From a virus (taxonomy: Duplodnaviria; Heunggongvirae; Uroviricota; Caudoviricetes), in the IMG/VR virus record IMGVR_UViG_2541047728_000014: 53,998 nt of DNA; one strand, given 5' to 3'. Of the stretch, positions 9,094 to 45,368 are shown in pieces. Below the pieces are notes generated by a model. It had not been told where the DNA came from, searched no databases, and was given only the letters and a program-made list of their open reading frames with translations. Position 1 is the first letter of the stretch. Each line of letters opens with the position of its first letter. A program made the translations under genes and the position numbers.

Positions 9094-9177
9094 TGCAAGT
9101 ATGGCCTTACCTTGTCTGCAAGTTTACAAAATGGAATTTTAAGATCAAGGCTTAAAATACACGTTTTGTGACTTGCA
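9094..9177. promoter_or_regulatory. cI / early-operon divergent control region with ~27-bp inverted repeat and TGCAAGT repeats
   Basis: TGCAAGT at about 9094, 9117 and inverted at 9171; arms TGCAAGTTTACAAAATGGAATTTTAAG (9117-9143) and the reverse complement of 9150-9177 are near-identical; candidate leftward promoter TTGATG-16-TATTTT on the minus strand. Confidence 0.5.
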
Positions 9178-9207
9178 TCAAACTTTTTGAGGTTATAGGG
9201 TAGCGAC

Positions 9208-9855
9208 ATGAAAACAAAATGGTATGACTTAGCAAAGCAGCTCATGCGGGCGCAGGGCATGAGCCAGGATTCACTCGCGGATCGTATGGGGATAACTAAA
9301 GGCGGCCTGTCACACTGGCTGAACGGTCGCCGAGAGCCAAATCTTGAAGATATTGCGCGGATTATGCGCGAGCTTGGTCGTCGGCAGTTTACTGTTACAC
9401 ATGATGGCATGGTCATTGATGATTCTGTTTCTAATACACTTCAGGCCGTGCCGCCGCGTGATTTAGGTAGTTACCCGGTTATTGACTGGAAGGACACAGT
9501 AAACAATATGGATGACGCAAGGCGTTCAGCATTACGACACGTTACGACTAGCGTTATTTGTTCAGATGACAGTTACTGGCTGGTTGCCAAAGGTGAATCA
9601 ATGAACGCGCCGCAGGGGTTGAGCATCCCGGCGGGGACGATGATACTTGTGGACCCGCACGCGCCAGCTATTGACGGCAAACTGGTTATAGCCCAGCTTG
9701 AGGAAGGGCAGATACCGACGTTTAAACAGTTGATTATTGATGGAGGTCAAAGGCTTTTACGTTCGCTCAATCCGCTGTATCCGCCAATCCCTATGAATCC
9801 AGAATCAAAAATTATAGGCGTGGTGGTTGATGCGAAGATCGTAAACCTGCCATAA
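9208..9855 (+). CDS. cI: CI-like prophage repressor (HTH plus S24 LexA-like peptidase domain)
   Basis: 215 aa; N-terminal HTH (MSQDSLADRMGITKGGLSHWLNGRREP); C-terminal S24 domain with GESMNAP (Ser) and TFKQL (Lys) dyad. Confidence 0.9.
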   Translation: MKTKWYDLAKQLMRAQGMSQDSLADRMGITKGGLSHWLNGRREPNLEDIARIMRELGRRQFTVTHDGMVIDDSVSNTLQAVPPRDLGSYPVIDWKDTVNNMDDARRSALRHVTTSVICSDDSYWLVAKGESMNAPQGLSIPAGTMILVDPHAPAIDGKLVIAQLEEGQIPTFKQLIIDGGQRLLRSLNPLYPPIPMNPESKIIGVVVDAKIVNLP

Positions 9856-9886: not shown

Positions 9887-9978
9887 CCTGGAAAACACCA
9901 AAACGTAAACAGAAAACGTTATTTATTATTTAAATATCAATGGCATATAAAATATTTTAAAAAAGTATACAAAATGGA

Positions 9979-13428: not shown

Positions 13429-13439
13429 GGGTAAATATT

Positions 13440-14060: not shown

Positions 14061-14064
14061 CAGC

Positions 14065-14123
14065 GTGATTGCGATCACATAAATATACATTTTGTATTGC
14101 GATCGCATATCCGTTTTGTAAAC
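14065..14123. promoter_or_regulatory. Intergenic regulatory region: CRP-like palindrome plus two TACA/TGTA motif copies
   Basis: GTGATTGCGATCACA (14065-14079); TGCGATCGCA perfect palindrome (14098-14107); TACATTTTGTAT (14086-14097) and CCGTTTTGTAAAC (14111-14123); upstream of the gene starting at 14159. Confidence 0.45.
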
Positions 14124-17633: not shown

Positions 17634-17713
17634 TTTACAAAATGGCGTCATTGCGTGATATGGATCACATAATGGCGCTTTTCGCCTTGTTCTGGTGTAT
17701 CCATTTTGTATAC
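17634..17713. promoter_or_regulatory. Intergenic regulatory region: inverted pair of TTTACAAAATGG motifs flanking a CRP-like palindrome
   Basis: TTTACAAAATGG (17634-17645), GTGATATGGATCACA (17655-17669), CCATTTTGTATAC (17701-17713); between the MTase-like gene and the ninF-like gene. Confidence 0.45.
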
Positions 17714-24160: not shown

Positions 24161-24220
24161 TGTGATCTGTATCACAATGTTTACGAAATGGCATTGTTTC
24201 GGCAGTGCCATTTTGTTATA
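24161..24220. promoter_or_regulatory. Intergenic regulatory region: near-consensus CRP-like palindrome followed by an inverted motif pair
   Basis: AAATGTGATCTGTATCACAAT (palindrome 24161-24176) close to CRP consensus TGTGA-N6-TCACA; then GTTTACGAAATGGCA and TGCCATTTTGTTATATA (8-bp inverted repeat AAATGGCA/TGCCATTT); upstream of the gene starting at 24252. Confidence 0.5.
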
Positions 24221-39834: not shown

Positions 39835-42177
39835 ATGGCTACCAGTGTAGGCACAATTTATTACGAAGTTGACGCAAAAACAGGACAACTTCTTGTAGCA
39901 CAACGACAGGCAGACCAGGCCTTTGACCGTATAGAGCACGGTGCTAAACAGGCCGATCGCCAGGTAAACACACTGAAAACATCAATCAAAGCACTGACCA
40001 GGGTTATCCATCTGCTAATTGCTGCCGAGGCCGTTAGACAGTTTATGGAAATGGCAGAGCAGGCCAAAATGCTACGCGTCAAAATCAAAATGCTTACAGG
40101 CGACGCGGAATCTGCCGGGCGGGTTTTTGATGGTCTGAAAGAAATATCCAGGGAGACGGGGCAGAGCCTGAAAGATACTGGCGAATTATGGCAAGGCCTG
40201 GCTATCTCACTAAAAAACACCTCCGCTACGGAAGGGCAATTGCTTAACCTGGTTGGCACTATTCAGAAAATGGGTGCATTAGGCGGCGCGTCAGCGGAAC
40301 AGATGTCTAACTCAATGCGTCAATTCCGTCAGTCTATCGACGGCGGTGTTCTTCGTGCCGAAGAATTTAACAGCCTGCTTGAAAATACGCCGACCATCGT
40401 ACAAACAATGGCCCGCCATATGGGATTATCAATGGGCCAGTTCCGCGCCGAAATGCTGGACGGCAAGATAACGGCTGAAAGGATGGTTAACGCAATACAG
40501 GCGGCTACGCAGGAAACAAACGATAAGTTTGCTCAGTTGCCGCGCACATCCGGCATGGCTATCAATGAGCTTAAAGTAGAAATTATGGGCCTTGTTGAGC
40601 AGTTGGATGATCTTTTTGGCGTGTCAGATGGCGTTGTTTCAGCTATCGACTTGATCACGAAAGGCGTTAAAGGGCTTGGCGATGGCGCTAAATTCGCTAA
40701 AACCTGCTTCGACACACTCAAAACGGCTGGTAGCGAATTTATCGACATGTTTGATGATGTGGCTGTTAAGGCTGGAGAGGTGGCAGAGAAGATCATCGCA
40801 ATGGTGACGCCAATCAAGGCGCTAATGGATGGCTATAAATGGATGAAGGAGGTAGTAGGAGAGCAAACCGACGAATATAACAGCAACTACGAGAAGAAAT
40901 ACGGGAAGACCGTTGGCAAGGTCATGCAACTACAGGATGATCTGACCGCAGCAATCCAGGCTACAGAAGAAGCAAGGAAAAATGAACAGAATGCTGCCAA
41001 TGACGGAGCGATTACCGGATTCGACAAGCCAGTAGACAAGCCGAAAAAACAGAAAAAAGAGAAGAAATCGGAAGCTGATCGGCTTGGTGACAAAGGTATA
41101 AGCGTTTCTGATCAGTACAACAAAGACGCCGCCGCCATGCGCAAAGCGTTGGAGAACGGCAAGGCCATTGATGCTGCATTTGCCCAGGGTAAAATCACGC
41201 TCCTTGAGTACCGCGCCGCGCAAAAAGGGATCGGCAAGGAACTGAAAGAAGAATTAGCACAAATTCCGGTAGATGAATTGCGTGATAAATGGTCACAAAT
41301 AGTAAGCCCGATGGATCAGCTAAAAGGCGAAGTTGACCCCATCCAGCAGGCGCAAAATGAATGGGCCATCCGTAAGCAAATGCTTATAGACCTGGGCGCT
41401 ACTGAAGCGCAACAGAAACAGGAATTGTTAGCCTATGAGCAACAGATCCGCGATCTGAAATGGGAACAATGGCAGGCGCAAAGCGACACAAACGGCCTTA
41501 TCGGTGATTGTGTTAATGGCCTTAAAGGCGGAATGAGTAATGCGCTTGTTGGCCTGTTAAACGGCACTCAATCATTGAGTGATGTTTTTGCTAACTTAGG
41601 AAGCAATATACTCGGCAATATCGGTAACAGACTCTCAGACATAGCTGCAAACTGGATAGCAGATCAGATCATGATGGAGACACAAAGCAAGGCCACGCAA
41701 ACAAGTACAACAGCAAGCGCGGTAGCAGCTCAGGGAAGCATTGCTGCGGCGGCGGCCCCAGCAGCGGCGGCAACTGCGGCGTCAACTGGCGGTAGCTGGG
41801 CGGCGGCTGGTTCGGCGGCGCTCACTGCGATCATGTCGCTGGCTACGTCAATTTTCGGCGGCGGTCGCTTTAATGGTGGTAGCGTCATTGGTGGTAATAT
41901 GTACCGCGTAGGGGAACACAACAGGCCGGAGCTATTCCAGACATCTAACGGCAATCAATATATGATCCCTGGCGAGAACGGCAGAGTTATTCCGGGCCGT
42001 GATATTGGCGGCGGTGGCGGTATTAGTATGCCTGTCAGTATCAGCATTCAGACCACGAACGGATTCAGCGACGAAGACAGCCGCAGACTTGAATTAACAA
42101 TGGAACGTGTAGCCATGAAAATGATAACAAGGGAATCTCAAAGACCAGGCGGAATGTTGCAACCTCGCCGCAAATAA
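39835..42177 (+). CDS. Tail tape measure protein
   Basis: 780 aa; long helical protein with Gly/Ala-rich tract (AAAAPAAAATAASTGGSWAAAGSAALTA); position between chaperone and minor tail genes. Confidence 0.85.
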   Translation: MATSVGTIYYEVDAKTGQLLVAQRQADQAFDRIEHGAKQADRQVNTLKTSIKALTRVIHLLIAAEAVRQFMEMAEQAKMLRVKIKMLTGDAESAGRVFDGLKEISRETGQSLKDTGELWQGLAISLKNTSATEGQLLNLVGTIQKMGALGGASAEQMSNSMRQFRQSIDGGVLRAEEFNSLLENTPTIVQTMARHMGLSMGQFRAEMLDGKITAERMVNAIQAATQETNDKFAQLPRTSGMAINELKVEIMGLVEQLDDLFGVSDGVVSAIDLITKGVKGLGDGAKFAKTCFDTLKTAGSEFIDMFDDVAVKAGEVAEKIIAMVTPIKALMDGYKWMKEVVGEQTDEYNSNYEKKYGKTVGKVMQLQDDLTAAIQATEEARKNEQNAANDGAITGFDKPVDKPKKQKKEKKSEADRLGDKGISVSDQYNKDAAAMRKALENGKAIDAAFAQGKITLLEYRAAQKGIGKELKEELAQIPVDELRDKWSQIVSPMDQLKGEVDPIQQAQNEWAIRKQMLIDLGATEAQQKQELLAYEQQIRDLKWEQWQAQSDTNGLIGDCVNGLKGGMSNALVGLLNGTQSLSDVFANLGSNILGNIGNRLSDIAANWIADQIMMETQSKATQTSTTASAVAAQGSIAAAAAPAAAATAASTGGSWAAAGSAALTAIMSLATSIFGGGRFNGGSVIGGNMYRVGEHNRPELFQTSNGNQYMIPGENGRVIPGRDIGGGGGISMPVSISIQTTNGFSDEDSRRLELTMERVAMKMITRESQRPGGMLQPRRK

Positions 42178-42182
42178 ACTAA

Positions 42183-42211
42183 ACCCCGGTGCAATGCCGG
42201 GGTTATTTTTC
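42183..42211 (+). terminator. Rho-independent terminator after the tape-measure gene
   Basis: Hairpin CCCCGG-TGCAAT-GCCGGGG followed by TTATTTTT; near-identical to the hairpin at 36057. Confidence 0.7.
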
Positions 42212-42263
42212 GTATTTATAAACGACCATTCCGCGCGATATATCCCCTTTCGAATATCTCGAC

Positions 42264-42518
42264 TCACTTATGAGTGCCTTTCACGCCACATAACTTGTTA
42301 TAGGCATGGTGCTCAACAATTAACCAAACCTTCAAATCTTCGCTAAACAGCCTCCAATCAAGATTGATATCCATTTTGTATCCGTAACCGTCGCGTAACT
42401 TTTTGGGGTAAACTTCTTTTCTCAGAAAGGCTTTAAGTAATTCCTTACCTTTCTTGATGATCCGGTCCTGTGCGTTTTTCTGTGCTTTCAGATTTCTGTC
42501 AATCGCTACCAGTTTCAT
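42264..42518 (-). CDS. Hypothetical small protein (84 aa), possibly RelE/ParE-superfamily toxin-like; second gene of a minus-strand two-gene cassette
   Basis: GGGGTGAG RBS; size and C-terminal LKVWLIVEHHAYNKL are loosely reminiscent of RelE/ParE/YoeB toxins; unverified. Confidence 0.4.
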   Translation of the reverse strand: MKLVAIDRNLKAQKNAQDRIIKKGKELLKAFLRKEVYPKKLRDGYGYKMDINLDWRLFSEDLKVWLIVEHHAYNKLCGVKGTHK

Positions 42519-42535
42519 AACTCACCCCATCATCC

Positions 42536-42691
42536 TTAGTTAAGTGCCTTCAGGAAGAAGTCCCGGTATTCATCTTCTTTCGCATTCATCATGAATTGAC
42601 CGTATTTGAATGCGTCGTCGAAACCCTTAACGATTGCTATTTCCACTTGTTCGAATGCGTTATTTAGCATTACTACTACATAGCGTTTCAT
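42536..42691 (-). CDS. Hypothetical small protein (51 aa), first gene of the minus-strand two-gene cassette
   Basis: Hand-called ORF MKRYVVVMLNNAFEQVEIAIVKGFDDAFKYGQFMMNAKEDEYRDFFLKALN with GAAGGAGG RBS; 17 nt upstream of the 84-aa ORF. Confidence 0.4.
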   Translation of the reverse strand: MKRYVVVMLNNAFEQVEIAIVKGFDDAFKYGQFMMNAKEDEYRDFFLKALN

Positions 42692-42760
42692 TTTGGGCCT
42701 CCTTCGTTGGTACTACTTTCTTCTTGCTTTCTATATACATCTTGTTGCGTGCTATGTGAA

Positions 42761-42845
42761 GCCATTTTGTAAACTAGCTATAATCATTGTGACAATGATC
42801 TTATTTTTCGCGTGGAAGCGCGTAAAGATATATACAAAATGTAAC
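42761..42845. promoter_or_regulatory. Divergent control region between the minus-strand cassette and gpM
   Basis: GCCATTTTGTAAAC (42761-42774), TATAAT (42779-42784), 17-bp palindrome ATCATTGTGACAATGAT (about 42783-42799), TATACAAAATGTAAC (42831-42845) 14 nt upstream of the gpM ATG. Confidence 0.5.
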
Positions 42846-42858
42846 TTGTGGGGGTTTT

Positions 42859-43212
42859 ATGCCGGAAGTGTTCAGATGGACGCCGCAAAGAAGCTACAGC
42901 GTGACCAGGAAGCCAGACGTATCTGTTGTTAAGCTGGGCGATGGTTATGAGCAAAGACAGGTAAAAGGTATCAATCCATTGCTTGATAGCTACACCCTGG
43001 TGTTTAAAGGCAGTAGCGCCGGATGTGGTGATGGTGGAAACGTAGCAATCCAGGCGGAAGCATTCTTGAGGGCGCGCGGCGCGGTCGAGGCTTTTTACTG
43101 GTCGCCGTCAATGGATAACGTGCAAAGGCTTTTTGTCTGTCGGCAATGGAGCATGACTAAAGACGGGCCTTTGTACACGCTAAACGCAACGTTTGAGCAA
43201 GTTATTAATTAG
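42859..43212 (+). CDS. Minor tail protein M (lambda gpM-like)
   Basis: 117 aa; FRWTPQ...VVKLGDGYEQRQ...FEQVIN closely resembles lambda gpM as recalled. Confidence 0.75.
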   Translation: MPEVFRWTPQRSYSVTRKPDVSVVKLGDGYEQRQVKGINPLLDSYTLVFKGSSAGCGDGGNVAIQAEAFLRARGAVEAFYWSPSMDNVQRLFVCRQWSMTKDGPLYTLNATFEQVIN

Positions 43213-43222
43213 AGGTGGTTAT

Positions 43223-43405
43223 ATGCCTTATTTTTGTGTAGTGGAGCGCACTGGAGCTTTTACATTATTTGCCGATTATGAAATTAATGATCTCACTGTA
43301 AAGGCTGATGACGGTGAGACCTGGTATCTTCATGATATGGGTGATGGGTATGTCGGCTGTACGACATATGATGGCAAAGAGGTGGCATTTCTATCCTACG
43401 ATTAA
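43223..43405 (+). CDS. Hypothetical small protein (60 aa)
   Basis: ORF 43193..43405; ATG at MPYFCVVERTG after AGAGGTGG RBS. Confidence 0.45.
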   Translation: MPYFCVVERTGAFTLFADYEINDLTVKADDGETWYLHDMGDGYVGCTTYDGKEVAFLSYD

Positions 43406-43441
43406 AAAAAACACCCCGCCGGAGCGGGGTTTATAATATTG
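43404..43441. terminator. Terminator hairpin between convergent genes
   Basis: A run, then CCCCGC-CGGA-GCGGGG, then TTTATAATATT. Confidence 0.55.
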
Positions 43442-43506
43442 GTGATAATACCAGCATTACAGCTACCGCAATAATAATCACTTCGAGAATGTAATGTTCA
43501 CACACC

Positions 43507-43755
43507 TCATAACACTCCCTTCAAATATGTCAATCCCTTATCGGTGACGAATGAATGATTTACCTGGTTTTCATCCGTCATGATGATAAATAACTTTTCC
43601 TGTAGGTATTTCGCTTTCGGGTACAGCGTTAAACATACCTGGTACAGAATCCCGCGCTCAATCAGCAAATCAATAAATTCGTGCTCATGATAACCGACGA
43701 GGCGGGCAGCCTGTTTCAACGTGTACACATAATCACCGTGATTGCGCCGCCCCAT
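43507..43755 (-). CDS. Hypothetical HTH-like small protein (82 aa), last gene of a minus-strand island in the tail module
   Basis: ORF 43507..43821; start placed at MGRRNHGDYV (AGGAG RBS); YTLKQAARLVGYHEHEFIDLLIERGIL looks like a helix-turn-helix. Confidence 0.45.
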   Translation of the reverse strand: MGRRNHGDYVYTLKQAARLVGYHEHEFIDLLIERGILYQVCLTLYPKAKYLQEKLFIIMTDENQVNHSFVTDKGLTYLKGVL

Positions 43756-43765
43756 GATTTTACTC

Positions 43766-43999
43766 CTACGCATCAAAAAATAGCATATCAGGCATAAAAT
43801 CATCGCCGTAAACAGTTCCATACCCTTTCACCATGCCTCCAGAAACATCAAGCACTGTCAGCGGAACAAAGTTTAAACAGTTGCCAACAGTGAAATAAGT
43901 ACCAGAAGATGTTTTGAATAATGGGTATTTATCTTTTATATTAAAATCCTTCTTTTTGTTAGATGTAACAACGAGTTTGATAATACCTATCATCTTCAT
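43766..43999 (-). CDS. Hypothetical small protein (about 77 aa)
   Basis: ORF 43766..44011 opens with GTG; ATG at MKMIGIIKLVV preferred. Confidence 0.4.
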   Translation of the reverse strand: MKMIGIIKLVVTSNKKKDFNIKDKYPLFKTSSGTYFTVGNCLNFVPLTVLDVSGGMVKGYGTVYGDDFMPDMLFFDA

Positions 44000-44014
44000 A
44001 TATTGGCTCACTCT

Positions 44015-44365
44015 TTATTTGCCATTAAAACAGCTTAGGTTATCGATGCAGAAGTCTTTCGCAGCTTTTTCGTATTCGCATTTTGCTTCTGGATCGTCAG
44101 CCGGGAAACCTTTTGCGTGTATTTCACCAGGGCAAGACTGATCCATAGAGTCTGCAAAATTAACATTGAAGTTAACATTAATATCTTTCGGGTTCATATC
44201 TTCCACCTCATCAACTATCTGTACCGGATTAGCAGCATATTTCACTGGATGGCCTAAACTACATTCAAGAATCCTGCCTTCTTCCAGGGCTACTTCTTCG
44301 CTATCAAATAATCCGAAACACTCCTTGCTACCACTTAACCACACATCAAGACTGTATTTTTTCAT
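44015..44365 (-). CDS. Hypothetical protein (116 aa), paralogue of the upstream 62-aa gene with a Cys-containing C-terminal extension
   Basis: Part of ORF 44015..44467 starting at MKKYSLDVWLSGSKECFGLFDSEEVALEEG; N-terminal 55 aa align with MTEKPWKLTVFMTDGREKVIALYDDEGEALVDA of the neighbouring gene. Confidence 0.45.
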   Translation of the reverse strand: MKKYSLDVWLSGSKECFGLFDSEEVALEEGRILECSLGHPVKYAANPVQIVDEVEDMNPKDINVNFNVNFADSMDQSCPGEIHAKGFPADDPEAKCEYEKAAKDFCIDNLSCFNGK

Positions 44366-44534
44366 TTTTGTTAGCCTCATATTTGACAGGTTCGATCTGG
44401 TATCCCAAAAGGCGGTCATCCTCAGCAAGTAAAAGCGCGTCAACCAATGCTTCCCCCTCGTCGTCATACAGGGCGATAACCTTTTCCCTACCGTCTGTCA
44501 TGAATACCGTCAACTTCCATGGCTTTTCAGTCAT
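44346..44534 (-). CDS. Hypothetical small protein (62 aa), first gene of the minus-strand island
   Basis: Part of ORF 44346..44654 starting at MTEKPWKLTVF (GGAGG RBS, preceded by an AACAAAATGG motif copy). Confidence 0.45.
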   Translation of the reverse strand: MTEKPWKLTVFMTDGREKVIALYDDEGEALVDALLLAEDDRLLGYQIEPVKYEANKNEKIQS

Positions 44535-44663
44535 AACGCACCTCCGCGCCATTTTGTTAACTTCCCCTTCGTTTGAGTAAAATATACATATTGTAAAAAC
44601 CATGATCAATCCATTTTGGTGTGATTTAGCGTGACGCATATCACAAAATGACAAGGTGAGAAA

Positions 44664-45368
44664 ATGCGCAATATTCCGAGAGAGATGATTATTGATTCCG
44701 TCGATGCCGGAGTTGGCGCGGTCATTGACTTATTTGAACTGGACCTTACTCCCCTGGGAGGCGAGGTTATCCGCTTCCATTCCGGCGCGAACGGCTATTA
44801 CGGCCAGGTTATCTGGAAGGGAGTAGCTTACAACAGCTACCCGATCGAGGCGACGGGCTTCGAAATGAAAAATGAGGGTGTTTATTCGCGGCCTCAAATG
44901 GTTGTAGCCAATATCGGCGGACTCATTACGGGGATGAACAACGATTTTAACGACCTTAGAGGAATGAAGGTTACGCGCCGCCAGGTGGAGGTGAAATATC
45001 TTGACGCCGTTAACTTCCCTAACGGTAATCCAGACGCAGATCCATCTATTGAGGCTGTATCTTTTTACGTCGTTGAAGCAATGAGCGAAGAAACAGCGGA
45101 TCAGGTGCAGTATGAACTGTCAACGCCAATTGATGCAGATAAAGCTGTCATCCCTGGGCGCACCATCCTTGCTGACGTTTGCCAGTGGCAATACAGAGGC
45201 GACGGGTGTATGTACGCTGGAGGACCAGTAGCAAACGATAAAGACGAGCCGACAAGCGATCCTAAAGCCGACAGATGTAGCCACCGTCTGAGCGGTTGTC
45301 GTTTACGTTTCCCGCGTCCAAATCCGTTACCAATTTCCTGTTTCCCCGGTTCAAGTAAGGTGGGCTAA
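44664..45368 (+). CDS. Minor tail protein L (lambda gpL-like)
   Basis: 234 aa; IDLTPLGGE...GFEMKNEGVYSRPQMVVANIGGLITGM...VNFPNGNPDADP...CQWQYRGDGCMYAG...CSHRLSGCRLRF closely parallels lambda gpL as recalled. Confidence 0.8.
   Translation: MRNIPREMIIDSVDAGVGAVIDLFELDLTPLGGEVIRFHSGANGYYGQVIWKGVAYNSYPIEATGFEMKNEGVYSRPQMVVANIGGLITGMNNDFNDLRGMKVTRRQVEVKYLDAVNFPNGNPDADPSIEAVSFYVVEAMSEETADQVQYELSTPIDADKAVIPGRTILADVCQWQYRGDGCMYAGGPVANDKDEPTSDPKADRCSHRLSGCRLRFPRPNPLPISCFPGSSKVG

Follow-up and report, generated by a model that had tools for sequence, protein, structure and literature searches.

A five-gene island between tail genes M and L

The DNA analyzed here, IMG/VR virus record IMGVR_UViG_2541047728_000014 (Caudoviricetes), is 53,998 nucleotides long and is called the window throughout. 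Our subject is an island of small minus-strand genes, g1 to g5, which lies in it between the tail genes M and L and which we propose to be an accessory operon. Judged by its sequence, the window is a relative of phage mEp021 and belongs with the mEp021-type phages to the mEpimmI group (PMC11893012). The region around the island is 81–83% identical to temperate coliphages of this type (mEp021, mEp554, mEp013, mEp010, mEp044, and mEp515), and identity rises to 89% with phage MagusPhagus and to 99% with a prophage of E. coli strain FAH.

At the locus, gpM occupies 42859–43212 (Pfam Phage_min_tail, E 1.4e-27) and gpL 44664–45368 (Phage_tail_L, E 1.8e-71). The gap between them holds minus-strand open reading frames (ORFs) of 62, 116, 81, and 104 amino acids (aa) at 43507–44534; in mEp021, their counterparts (mEp021_74, 73, 72, and 71) bear the label hypothetical protein in three cases and “putative antirepressor” in the fourth. 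A sequence-only reading of this DNA had listed these four genes. All four frames are present, but the genes on the minus strand number five, because a short hydrophobic peptide gene, g5, had been overlooked (Table 1). In lambda, M and L (30% and 44% identical to those of the window) meet at position 13429, whereas the window has a gap of 1451 nt. Since the homologous lambda genes abut, we regard the island, and a neighboring one between the tape-measure gene and gpM (the H-M island), as additions. The island has a G+C content of 37–43%, against 47–57% in the tape-measure gene and in L/K, and the sign of its GC skew is reversed.

We compared 13 phage or prophage loci, 44 viral contigs, and 18 metagenome contigs. 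In every one of them (13/13, 44/44, and 18/18) the island lies between M and L on the strand opposite to these genes, and g2, g4, and a small hydrophobic ORF are found in each of the 62 viral and metagenome loci. What varies among relatives is g3, the type of g1 and the type of g5, while the island itself is constant. After g4, some relatives have an additional 67-aa gene or a hydrophobic ORF of 23–26 aa.

Synonymous changes exceed replacement changes in g1, g2, g4, and g5, and for this reason we consider these frames to be real genes. The dN/dS values are 0.24–0.34 for g1 (against diverged relatives), 0.16–0.33 for g2, and 0.05–0.19 for g4, which also has a pN/pS of 0.13 and measures 82 aa in 52 of 52 loci (35 distinct sequences). 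The stop codon of g5 touches the terminator stem. Its 24-aa form was seen in 19 loci, and the 10 distinct sequences among them all have 24 codons (pN/pS 0.25); an alternative form of 38 or 45 aa (MKIEVLALIIMGLIVFG...) occurs in 30 loci (pN/pS 0.19). The contrary view, in which the ORFs are chance frames antisense to an untranslated spacer where only DNA signals matter, draws on the very small size of the products and on the three of five that have no family of known function. It is contradicted for g1, g2, g4, and g5 by dN/dS well below 1 with saturated synonymous change, by the fixed lengths of g4 and g5 and by conserved ribosome-binding sites. We judge it very improbable, and possible for g3 only.

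The optional g3 was found in 4 of the 44 viral and 1 of the 18 metagenome loci and in a few prophages, roughly a tenth of the relatives. Its probable start is ATG 43999, the start used in the annotation of strain FAH, which gives a product of 77 aa. Its dN/dS is higher (0.39–0.70), and searches of Pfam, PHROG, NCBIfam, and PADLOC gave no match; on balance, we lean toward a functional gene. In one relative (L036, 2857–3342), the gap between g2 and g4 contains a split ORF of about 460 nt with an HNH-like motif (DHINHIRSDNR, read by eye), and a second (L065) has an insert of the same size between these genes. Because the HNH-like ORF sits exactly where the window has g3, the g2–g4 junction looks like an insertion hot spot. 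A further junction is suggested at the other end of g4. In all loci, its last ~8 codons (window 43507–43533; GLTYLKGVL, GVNYLRDNL, or GLTYLRETL) covary with the type of peptide gene downstream, and the recombination breakpoint of g5-cassette swaps therefore falls inside g4.

The terminator that had been placed at about 43415 was recovered as a G+C stem followed by a run of eight Ts on the minus strand. Its T tract is weaker on the plus strand; the mEp021 annotation gives the terminator for both strands. A plus-strand ORF of 60 very acidic aa (pI 4.05, phrog_3249; 43223–43405) follows gpM and ends at this shared terminator. It is kept in all relatives checked, and lambda has no gene between M and L. 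A scan of 41900–45000 with Rfam detected no known RNA. PADLOC and NCBIfam gave no match for any island protein, and g4 is the only one matched in Pfam.

Apart from the number of genes and the length of g4, the earlier account of the island is essentially correct. It had described an independently regulated accessory module, and this description agrees with the extra DNA relative to lambda, the low G+C content, the island's own predicted promoter and terminator, the conserved sites, and the purifying selection seen in the sequences. Over about 70 related loci, its frames, taken together, were neither absent nor unconserved as coding sequence. We consider it very likely that the island is an autonomous, conserved operon of real genes with its own predicted signals.

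Table 1. Positions in the window of the island genes and of the predicted signals
Feature	Position	Strand	Description
g1	44346..44534	-	62-aa acidic protein, pI 4.4; phrog_29559; predicted beta-beta-alpha-beta fold
g2	44015..44365	-	116-aa acidic two-module protein; phrog_38567; N-domain 1-56, C-module 57-116
Internal site in g2	44195..44211	-	Shine-Dalgarno-like GAGGTG and Met57 ATG; candidate internal start or fusion relic
g3	43766..43999	-	optional 77-aa ORF; alternative start GTG 44011
g4	43507..43755	-	82-aa free-standing KilAC (ANT, PF03374) protein
g5	43431..43505	-	24-aa hydrophobic peptide MCEHYILEVIIIAVAVMLVLSPIL; GTG start; AAGGAG 8 nt upstream
Intrinsic terminator	43404..43430	-	7-bp G+C stem 43412-43430, then T8; -15.8 kcal/mol
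Predicted sigma-70 promoter	44581..44609	-	-35 TTGATC, 17-nt spacer, -10 TATATT; consensus scan
CRP-type palindrome	44630..44645	-	TGTGATATGCGTCACG; centre ~-63.5 from predicted start site, assuming a start 7 nt after the -10 box
Full motif copy	44548..44561	-	GTTAACAAAATGGC; between predicted start site and g1 ribosome-binding site
Partial motif copy	44610..44620	-	ACCAAAATGGA; abuts -35 box
CRP-like palindromes	9167-9182, 14064-14079, 17654-17669, 24161-24176, 44630-44645		each near a motif copy
Motif copies	5148, 9122, 9965, 14110, 17633, 17700, 24179, 42761, 44548, 51882		GTTTACAAAATGG(A/C)
Motif/G-TATAT arrangement	9965, 42761, 44610-44620, 24179, 14110		9965 just downstream of CI-like repressor gene; 42761 upstream of H-M island

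g4 is a free-standing KilAC domain

The fourth gene had been read as a 104-aa frame starting at 43821. This longer version was not supported: the relatives are all 82 aa long, with an ATG equivalent to 43755, and the 22 additional hydrophobic residues are unconserved and without domain match. On this comparison, g4 almost certainly starts at ATG 43755.

The 82-aa protein matches Pfam PF03374 with 27.0 bits (cutoff 25.3; E 5.8e-6) over model positions 23–101 of 108, and precomputed PF03374 matches exist for 6 of 7 close homologues. Multidomain Ant/Rha proteins (Vibrio, Cronobacter, Hafnia, and Stx phages) share 30–41% identity with it in their C-termini. Residues 71–74 read TDKG, invariant in the relatives listed, and fit the TxKG motif conserved in CreP and P1 KilA (bioRxiv 10.1101/2024.01.05.574328). 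With KilAC alone, g4 has no AntA/B, Bro-N, KilA-N, or Rha domain in front according to Pfam, and a PDB sequence search returned nothing for it. Manual pangenome analysis of the mEpimmI group has placed a KilAC-like protein among the core genes (PMC11893012).

KilAC domains that act alone have been described elsewhere. CreP of Acinetobacter baylyi ADP1 is a free-standing KilAC bacteriostatic toxin that arrests cell division (bioRxiv 10.1101/2024.01.05.574328), and the isolated KilAC domain of AriS from Listeria phage phi10403S suppresses the SOS response (PMC9043618). The isolated KilAC domain of phi11 Gp07 likewise inhibits cell division (PMC5944126). g4 resembles CreP in being a single KilAC domain with the TxKG motif and no N-terminal DNA-binding domain, at 82 aa compared to 103. 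However, CreP belongs to a CRISPR locus and is repressed by Cas, whereas g4 comes fourth in a phage operon. AriS, phi11 Gp07, and P1 KilA share PF03374 with g4 but carry AntA/B, Bro-N, Rha, or KilA-N ahead of it, which g4 does not. By analogy with these proteins, g4 might act on host cell division or on the SOS response, a suggestion that we find attractive but somewhat doubtful.

g2 fuses a variable domain to a near-invariant module

As judged by comparison of 44 homologues, g2 is a fusion of a variable N-domain and a near-invariant acidic C-module. Over the first ~56 residues, the homologues divide into widely differing allele classes, whereas residues 70–116 (ADSMDQSCPGEIHAKGFPADDPEAKREYEKAAKDFCIDNL) are almost invariant. 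Met57 is preceded at a suitable distance by (A/G)AGGTGGAA; none of 37 loci lacks the ATG, and 36 of them have GGTGG. Free-standing homologues of the C-module begin exactly at the equivalent of Met57.

In-frame nested genes are known in phages, as in lambda S107/S105 and C/Nu3. As in these cases, g2 has a conserved in-frame ribosome-binding site and ATG within an ORF, which could yield a shorter product, with the difference that the site in g2 may be a mere relic of a two-gene fusion. Use of Met57 as an internal translation start is a serious possibility, though we lean slightly against it.

The g2 family is tiny: in 5.8 billion sequences it makes up 56 clusters. When 1.84 billion representatives were searched exhaustively with a profile, 17 proteins came back, members of the same narrow family or fragments apart from two short homologues in which the C-module stands free and a few long proteins matched weakly over short stretches. 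Pfam searches with all 44 homologues of g2 gave noise only, and a PDB sequence search returned nothing for g2. A metal-binding role for Cys78, His83, and Cys106 was also considered; the case for it is weakened by P0085 and P0095, homologues in which the module is free-standing and one or both cysteines are missing.

Two free-standing C-module genes were found outside the mEpimmI group. The first, of 60 aa, lies in a 121-kb viral contig (L063), of which a search of the phage collection matched one gene only, ~66% identical to ~135-kb E. coli phages. The second, of 56 aa, is part of L012, a 58-kb contig that has a portal of Mu type. In L063 (2471–2801), a homologue of the 45-aa hydrophobic peptide begins 10 nt past the C-module gene, and in L012 (5001–5478), a 42-aa single-helix membrane peptide is encoded two genes downstream. 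A metagenome scan for new C-module contexts returned the same island only. Since the C-module and a small membrane peptide lie close together in three unrelated phage backgrounds, a functional pair is hinted at, and we tentatively allow that the g2 C-module and g5 work together, a proposal that we would place just short of even.

A membrane peptide in a tail cluster also calls to mind superinfection exclusion. In such a scheme, the island would be a prophage-expressed defense moron, and g5 with g2 would block DNA entry at the inner membrane or abort infection. This scheme would fit the position in the tail cluster, the low G+C content and the island's own predicted promoter and terminator, as in the HK97 gp15 moron (PMC3594210), as well as the universal presence of a small hydrophobic ORF; the hypervariable N-domain of g2 could reflect an arms race. 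Nevertheless, the earlier suggestion of a phage-exclusion role received no specific support, PADLOC giving no match, the C-module/peptide pair also occurs in the 121-kb contig, and the island promoter resembles an early lytic promoter. We consider exclusion unlikely, although it remains the foremost of the alternatives.

g1 and the N-domain of g2 are probably homologous

The 62-aa and 116-aa products had been proposed as paralogues on the basis of an N-terminal alignment. This alignment is reproduced by BLASTP (35% identity over 52 aa, E 5e-5) and reaches z = 7.0 against 2000 shuffles. Other combinations of g1 and g2 alleles scored z from -1 to 2.9, mostly near noise; in sequence, the window's allele pair is unusually alike. 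An earlier profile comparison with full-length g2 gave a probability of only 11%, compared to 78% (E 1.8e-5) when 27 g1 sequences were compared with 28 g2 N-domains by hhalign, over 49 columns from end to end.

The AlphaFold models contain strands, helix, and strand in the same order and in register: E6-12, E17-23, H26-37, and E42-49 for g1 (pLDDT ~75), and E2-10, E13-20, H23-37, and E42-49 for the g2 N-domain (pLDDT ~90). Their top-50 lists in a viral structure library share four neighbors, all tiny phage proteins of unknown function. The predicted folds match BFVD phage proteins of 50–70 aa, several of them annotated as DUF7336, DUF2188, or DUF7441 (TM-score up to 0.77–0.80, target-normalized). 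The paralogue claim is probably right: the shared predicted topology, the hhalign result and the common structural neighbors give it moderate support, and with a fold this simple, we regard g1 and the g2 N-domain as probably homologous.

A few relatives carry an unrelated 52-aa ORF in the slot of g1. The 51-aa ORF of the H-M island was considered as a third copy of the g1 fold and discarded, as it shows no similarity. Homologues of g1, soluble and acidic proteins of 51–62 aa, are named “transporter” at NCBI (for example L003, 2091–2246; P0059–P0061, P0065, and P0069); this looks like a spurious, propagated name.

The predicted promoter carries a CRP-type palindrome and a phage-wide motif

TTGATC-17-TATATT is the only good sigma-70 match upstream of g1. 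It is invariant or almost so in 11 aligned relatives, in which the whole 130-nt spacer between g1 and L is conserved; of 39 further loci, 34 keep TTGAT[CA]/16–17 nt/TATATT. Much of the coding sequence is less strictly conserved than promoter, palindrome, and motif. Inspection of the promoter region by eye only revealed no sigma-54 or LexA-box sequence.

The palindrome ahead of the promoter matches 9 of 10 core positions of the CRP consensus TGTGA-N6-TCACA. In 34 relatives, the half-sites TGTGA/TCAC are invariant and the spacer occurs in nine variants (TGTGAT-N4-RTCACG). Fixed half-sites around a variable spacer are what a protein-binding site would be expected to show. Five CRP-like palindromes (TGTGAT-N4-RTCACR) were counted in the window, compared to 0.84 expected, and the one at 24161 is a perfect TGTGATCTGTATCACA. 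From their number and from their position, each near a motif copy, we suggest that CRP, or a phage protein of equal specificity, takes part in the regulation of the phage.

A motif copy upstream of the first gene had also been reported, and it is indeed there, 13 nt before the g1 ATG. This full copy is invariant in 34 of 34 relatives, and in two prophages, it forms the breakpoint at which an unrelated ORF replaces g1. Matches to GTTTACAAAATGGC number 10 in the window, against 0.96 expected, and copies of the motif flank the CI-like repressor gene (9208–9855) on both sides. At five sites, four with full copies and one with the partial copy, the motif stands ~24 nt upstream of G-TATAT, and we take these sites to be a promoter family. 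The island promoter resembles the repressor-adjacent early promoter at 9965 over ~55 nt. Three motif copies fall roughly at the published positions of nutL, nutR1, and nutR2, compared by position only; the paper on the mEpimmI group defines no operators (PMC11893012).

Another reading makes g4 a true antirepressor. If g4 bound and inactivated the CI-like repressor, induction would be placed under CRP or a motif-binding factor. The domain is named for antirepressors, the regulatory sites in the promoter are conserved, and mEpimmI lysogens, which are not UV-inducible and whose repressor has no Ala-Gly cleavage site (PMC11893012), would need another route to induction. On the other hand, in AriS, the sole case that has been dissected, phage regulation maps to the N-terminal domain and not to KilAC (PMC9043618). 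g4 has no such N-terminal domain, and a look at the promoter by eye only showed nothing like a LexA box. A true antirepressor switch is, in our view, improbable.

The neighboring H-M island

A second backward-facing island lies on the minus strand at 42264–42691, between the tape-measure gene and gpM. It encodes a mildly acidic protein of 51 aa (phrog_29810) followed by a basic, ParE-like toxin of 84 aa (PF24732, E 9e-12), and these two genes are probably a toxin-antitoxin pair, to judge by their sequences. Its signals are a motif copy (42761–42774), a TTCACA-17-TATATA promoter and a two-way terminator (42182–42204). In relatives, the H-M island has further genes, including a zinc-ribbon protein and an HNH endonuclease.

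The M-L island itself could likewise be a toxin-antitoxin-like addiction cassette, in which g4 or the membrane peptide would be the toxin and the acidic g1 and g2 its neutralizers. CreP, a free KilAC protein, is a bacteriostatic toxin (bioRxiv 10.1101/2024.01.05.574328); g1 and g2 have net charges of -6.5 and -12.4 and lie upstream of a near-neutral g4; and the ParE-like toxin next door stands behind the same motif-plus-promoter arrangement. Yet searches of Pfam, NCBIfam, and PADLOC assigned g1 and g2 to no known antitoxin family and gave them no DNA-binding domain; nor did they reveal a toxin-antitoxin family for g1, g2, g3, or g5. Moreover, the g2 C-module travels without g4 in other phages, and the rest of the island is kept when g3 or an HNH-like ORF lies at the g2–g4 junction. 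We find such a cassette distinctly unlikely.

Discussion

The term moron is used here in Hendrix's sense. We think it likely that the M-L island is a self-contained accessory operon of this kind, fixed in the whole mEpimmI group, placed head-on in the tail cluster and, as our best guess, directed at the host. Transcription would start at the conserved predicted sigma-70 promoter (44609–44581), with the CRP-type palindrome ahead of it and two GTTTACAAAATGG motif copies bracketing it, would run leftward through the five small genes and would stop at the hairpin at 43430–43412. Phages of the mEpimmI group use N-like and Q-like antitermination (PMC11893012). Antiterminated late tail transcripts would pass the terminator and collide with transcription of the island, and since late transcription runs against it, we infer that activity of the operon is confined to the prophage or to early infection.

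Its target would most likely be the host cell and not the virion. The KilAC protein g4 would act as effector by stopping cell division or weakening the SOS response, in the way described for free KilAC elsewhere, while the g2 C-module and g5 might form a soluble/membrane pair at the inner membrane. g1 and the g2 N-domain would be two diverged copies of a tiny beta-beta-alpha-beta domain, and g3 would be optional cargo. A bolder version sees the C-module and g5 as an unrecognized two-part device that moves from temperate coliphages to others unrelated to them and that was here joined to KilAC under CRP/motif control, with damping of RecA/SOS by KilAC in lysogens adding, beside the uncleavable repressor, to the lack of UV induction. 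We regard this version as a long shot. The contribution of an SOS-damping KilAC to the non-UV-inducibility of the mEpimmI group, whose lysogens UV does not induce and whose repressor lacks the Ala-Gly site (PMC11893012), is speculation.

Several observations weigh against a host-directed operon built in this way. The KilAC match of g4 exceeds the curated cutoff by 1.7 bits only, and its relation to CreP and AriS is presumed. For the C-module, the AlphaFold model is of low confidence (pLDDT ~50), and outside the mEpimmI group the linkage to g5 is seen in two independent contexts only. PADLOC, NCBIfam, and PDB sequences gave no function for the island proteins. The palindrome is centered at ~-63.5 from the assumed start site, or at -62.5 in relatives one base shorter, compared to -61.5 for a canonical class I site, and it may bind a phage protein instead of CRP. 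Finally, because its promoter resembles an early promoter, the operon may be repressed in lysogens and would not be a classical prophage-expressed moron. We ranked the alternatives set out above in the order superinfection exclusion, toxin-antitoxin-like cassette, and true antirepressor switch.

The closest parallel to a host-directed moron at this position is HK97 gp15, a tail-cluster moron that confers superinfection exclusion (Juhala et al., 2000; Cumby et al., 2012; reviewed in PMC3594210). Like the gene 15 element, the island is extra DNA between tail genes that otherwise abut, has a lower G+C content and a predicted promoter and terminator of its own, and encodes a small membrane protein. 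In contrast, it has five genes instead of one, is transcribed against the late operon, is fixed in all group members checked and not sporadic, and has a promoter that resembles one of the phage's own early promoters. A moron in a tail operon is a known kind of element and the phage group has already been described; the details are partly unusual. As morons in tail operons are well known, current concepts are unchanged.

Phages of the mEpimmI group are reported to be as common as lambdoid phages in human gut E. coli (PMC11893012). Every member checked has the operon, and whatever function it has would therefore affect many gut strains. The operon offers a compact case in which to learn how a KilAC domain that stands alone acts in its own phage and what purpose tiny acidic and membrane proteins serve in phages. 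The conserved predicted promoter, with its CRP-type site and phage-wide motif, may also provide a way into the regulatory circuit of the mEpimmI group.

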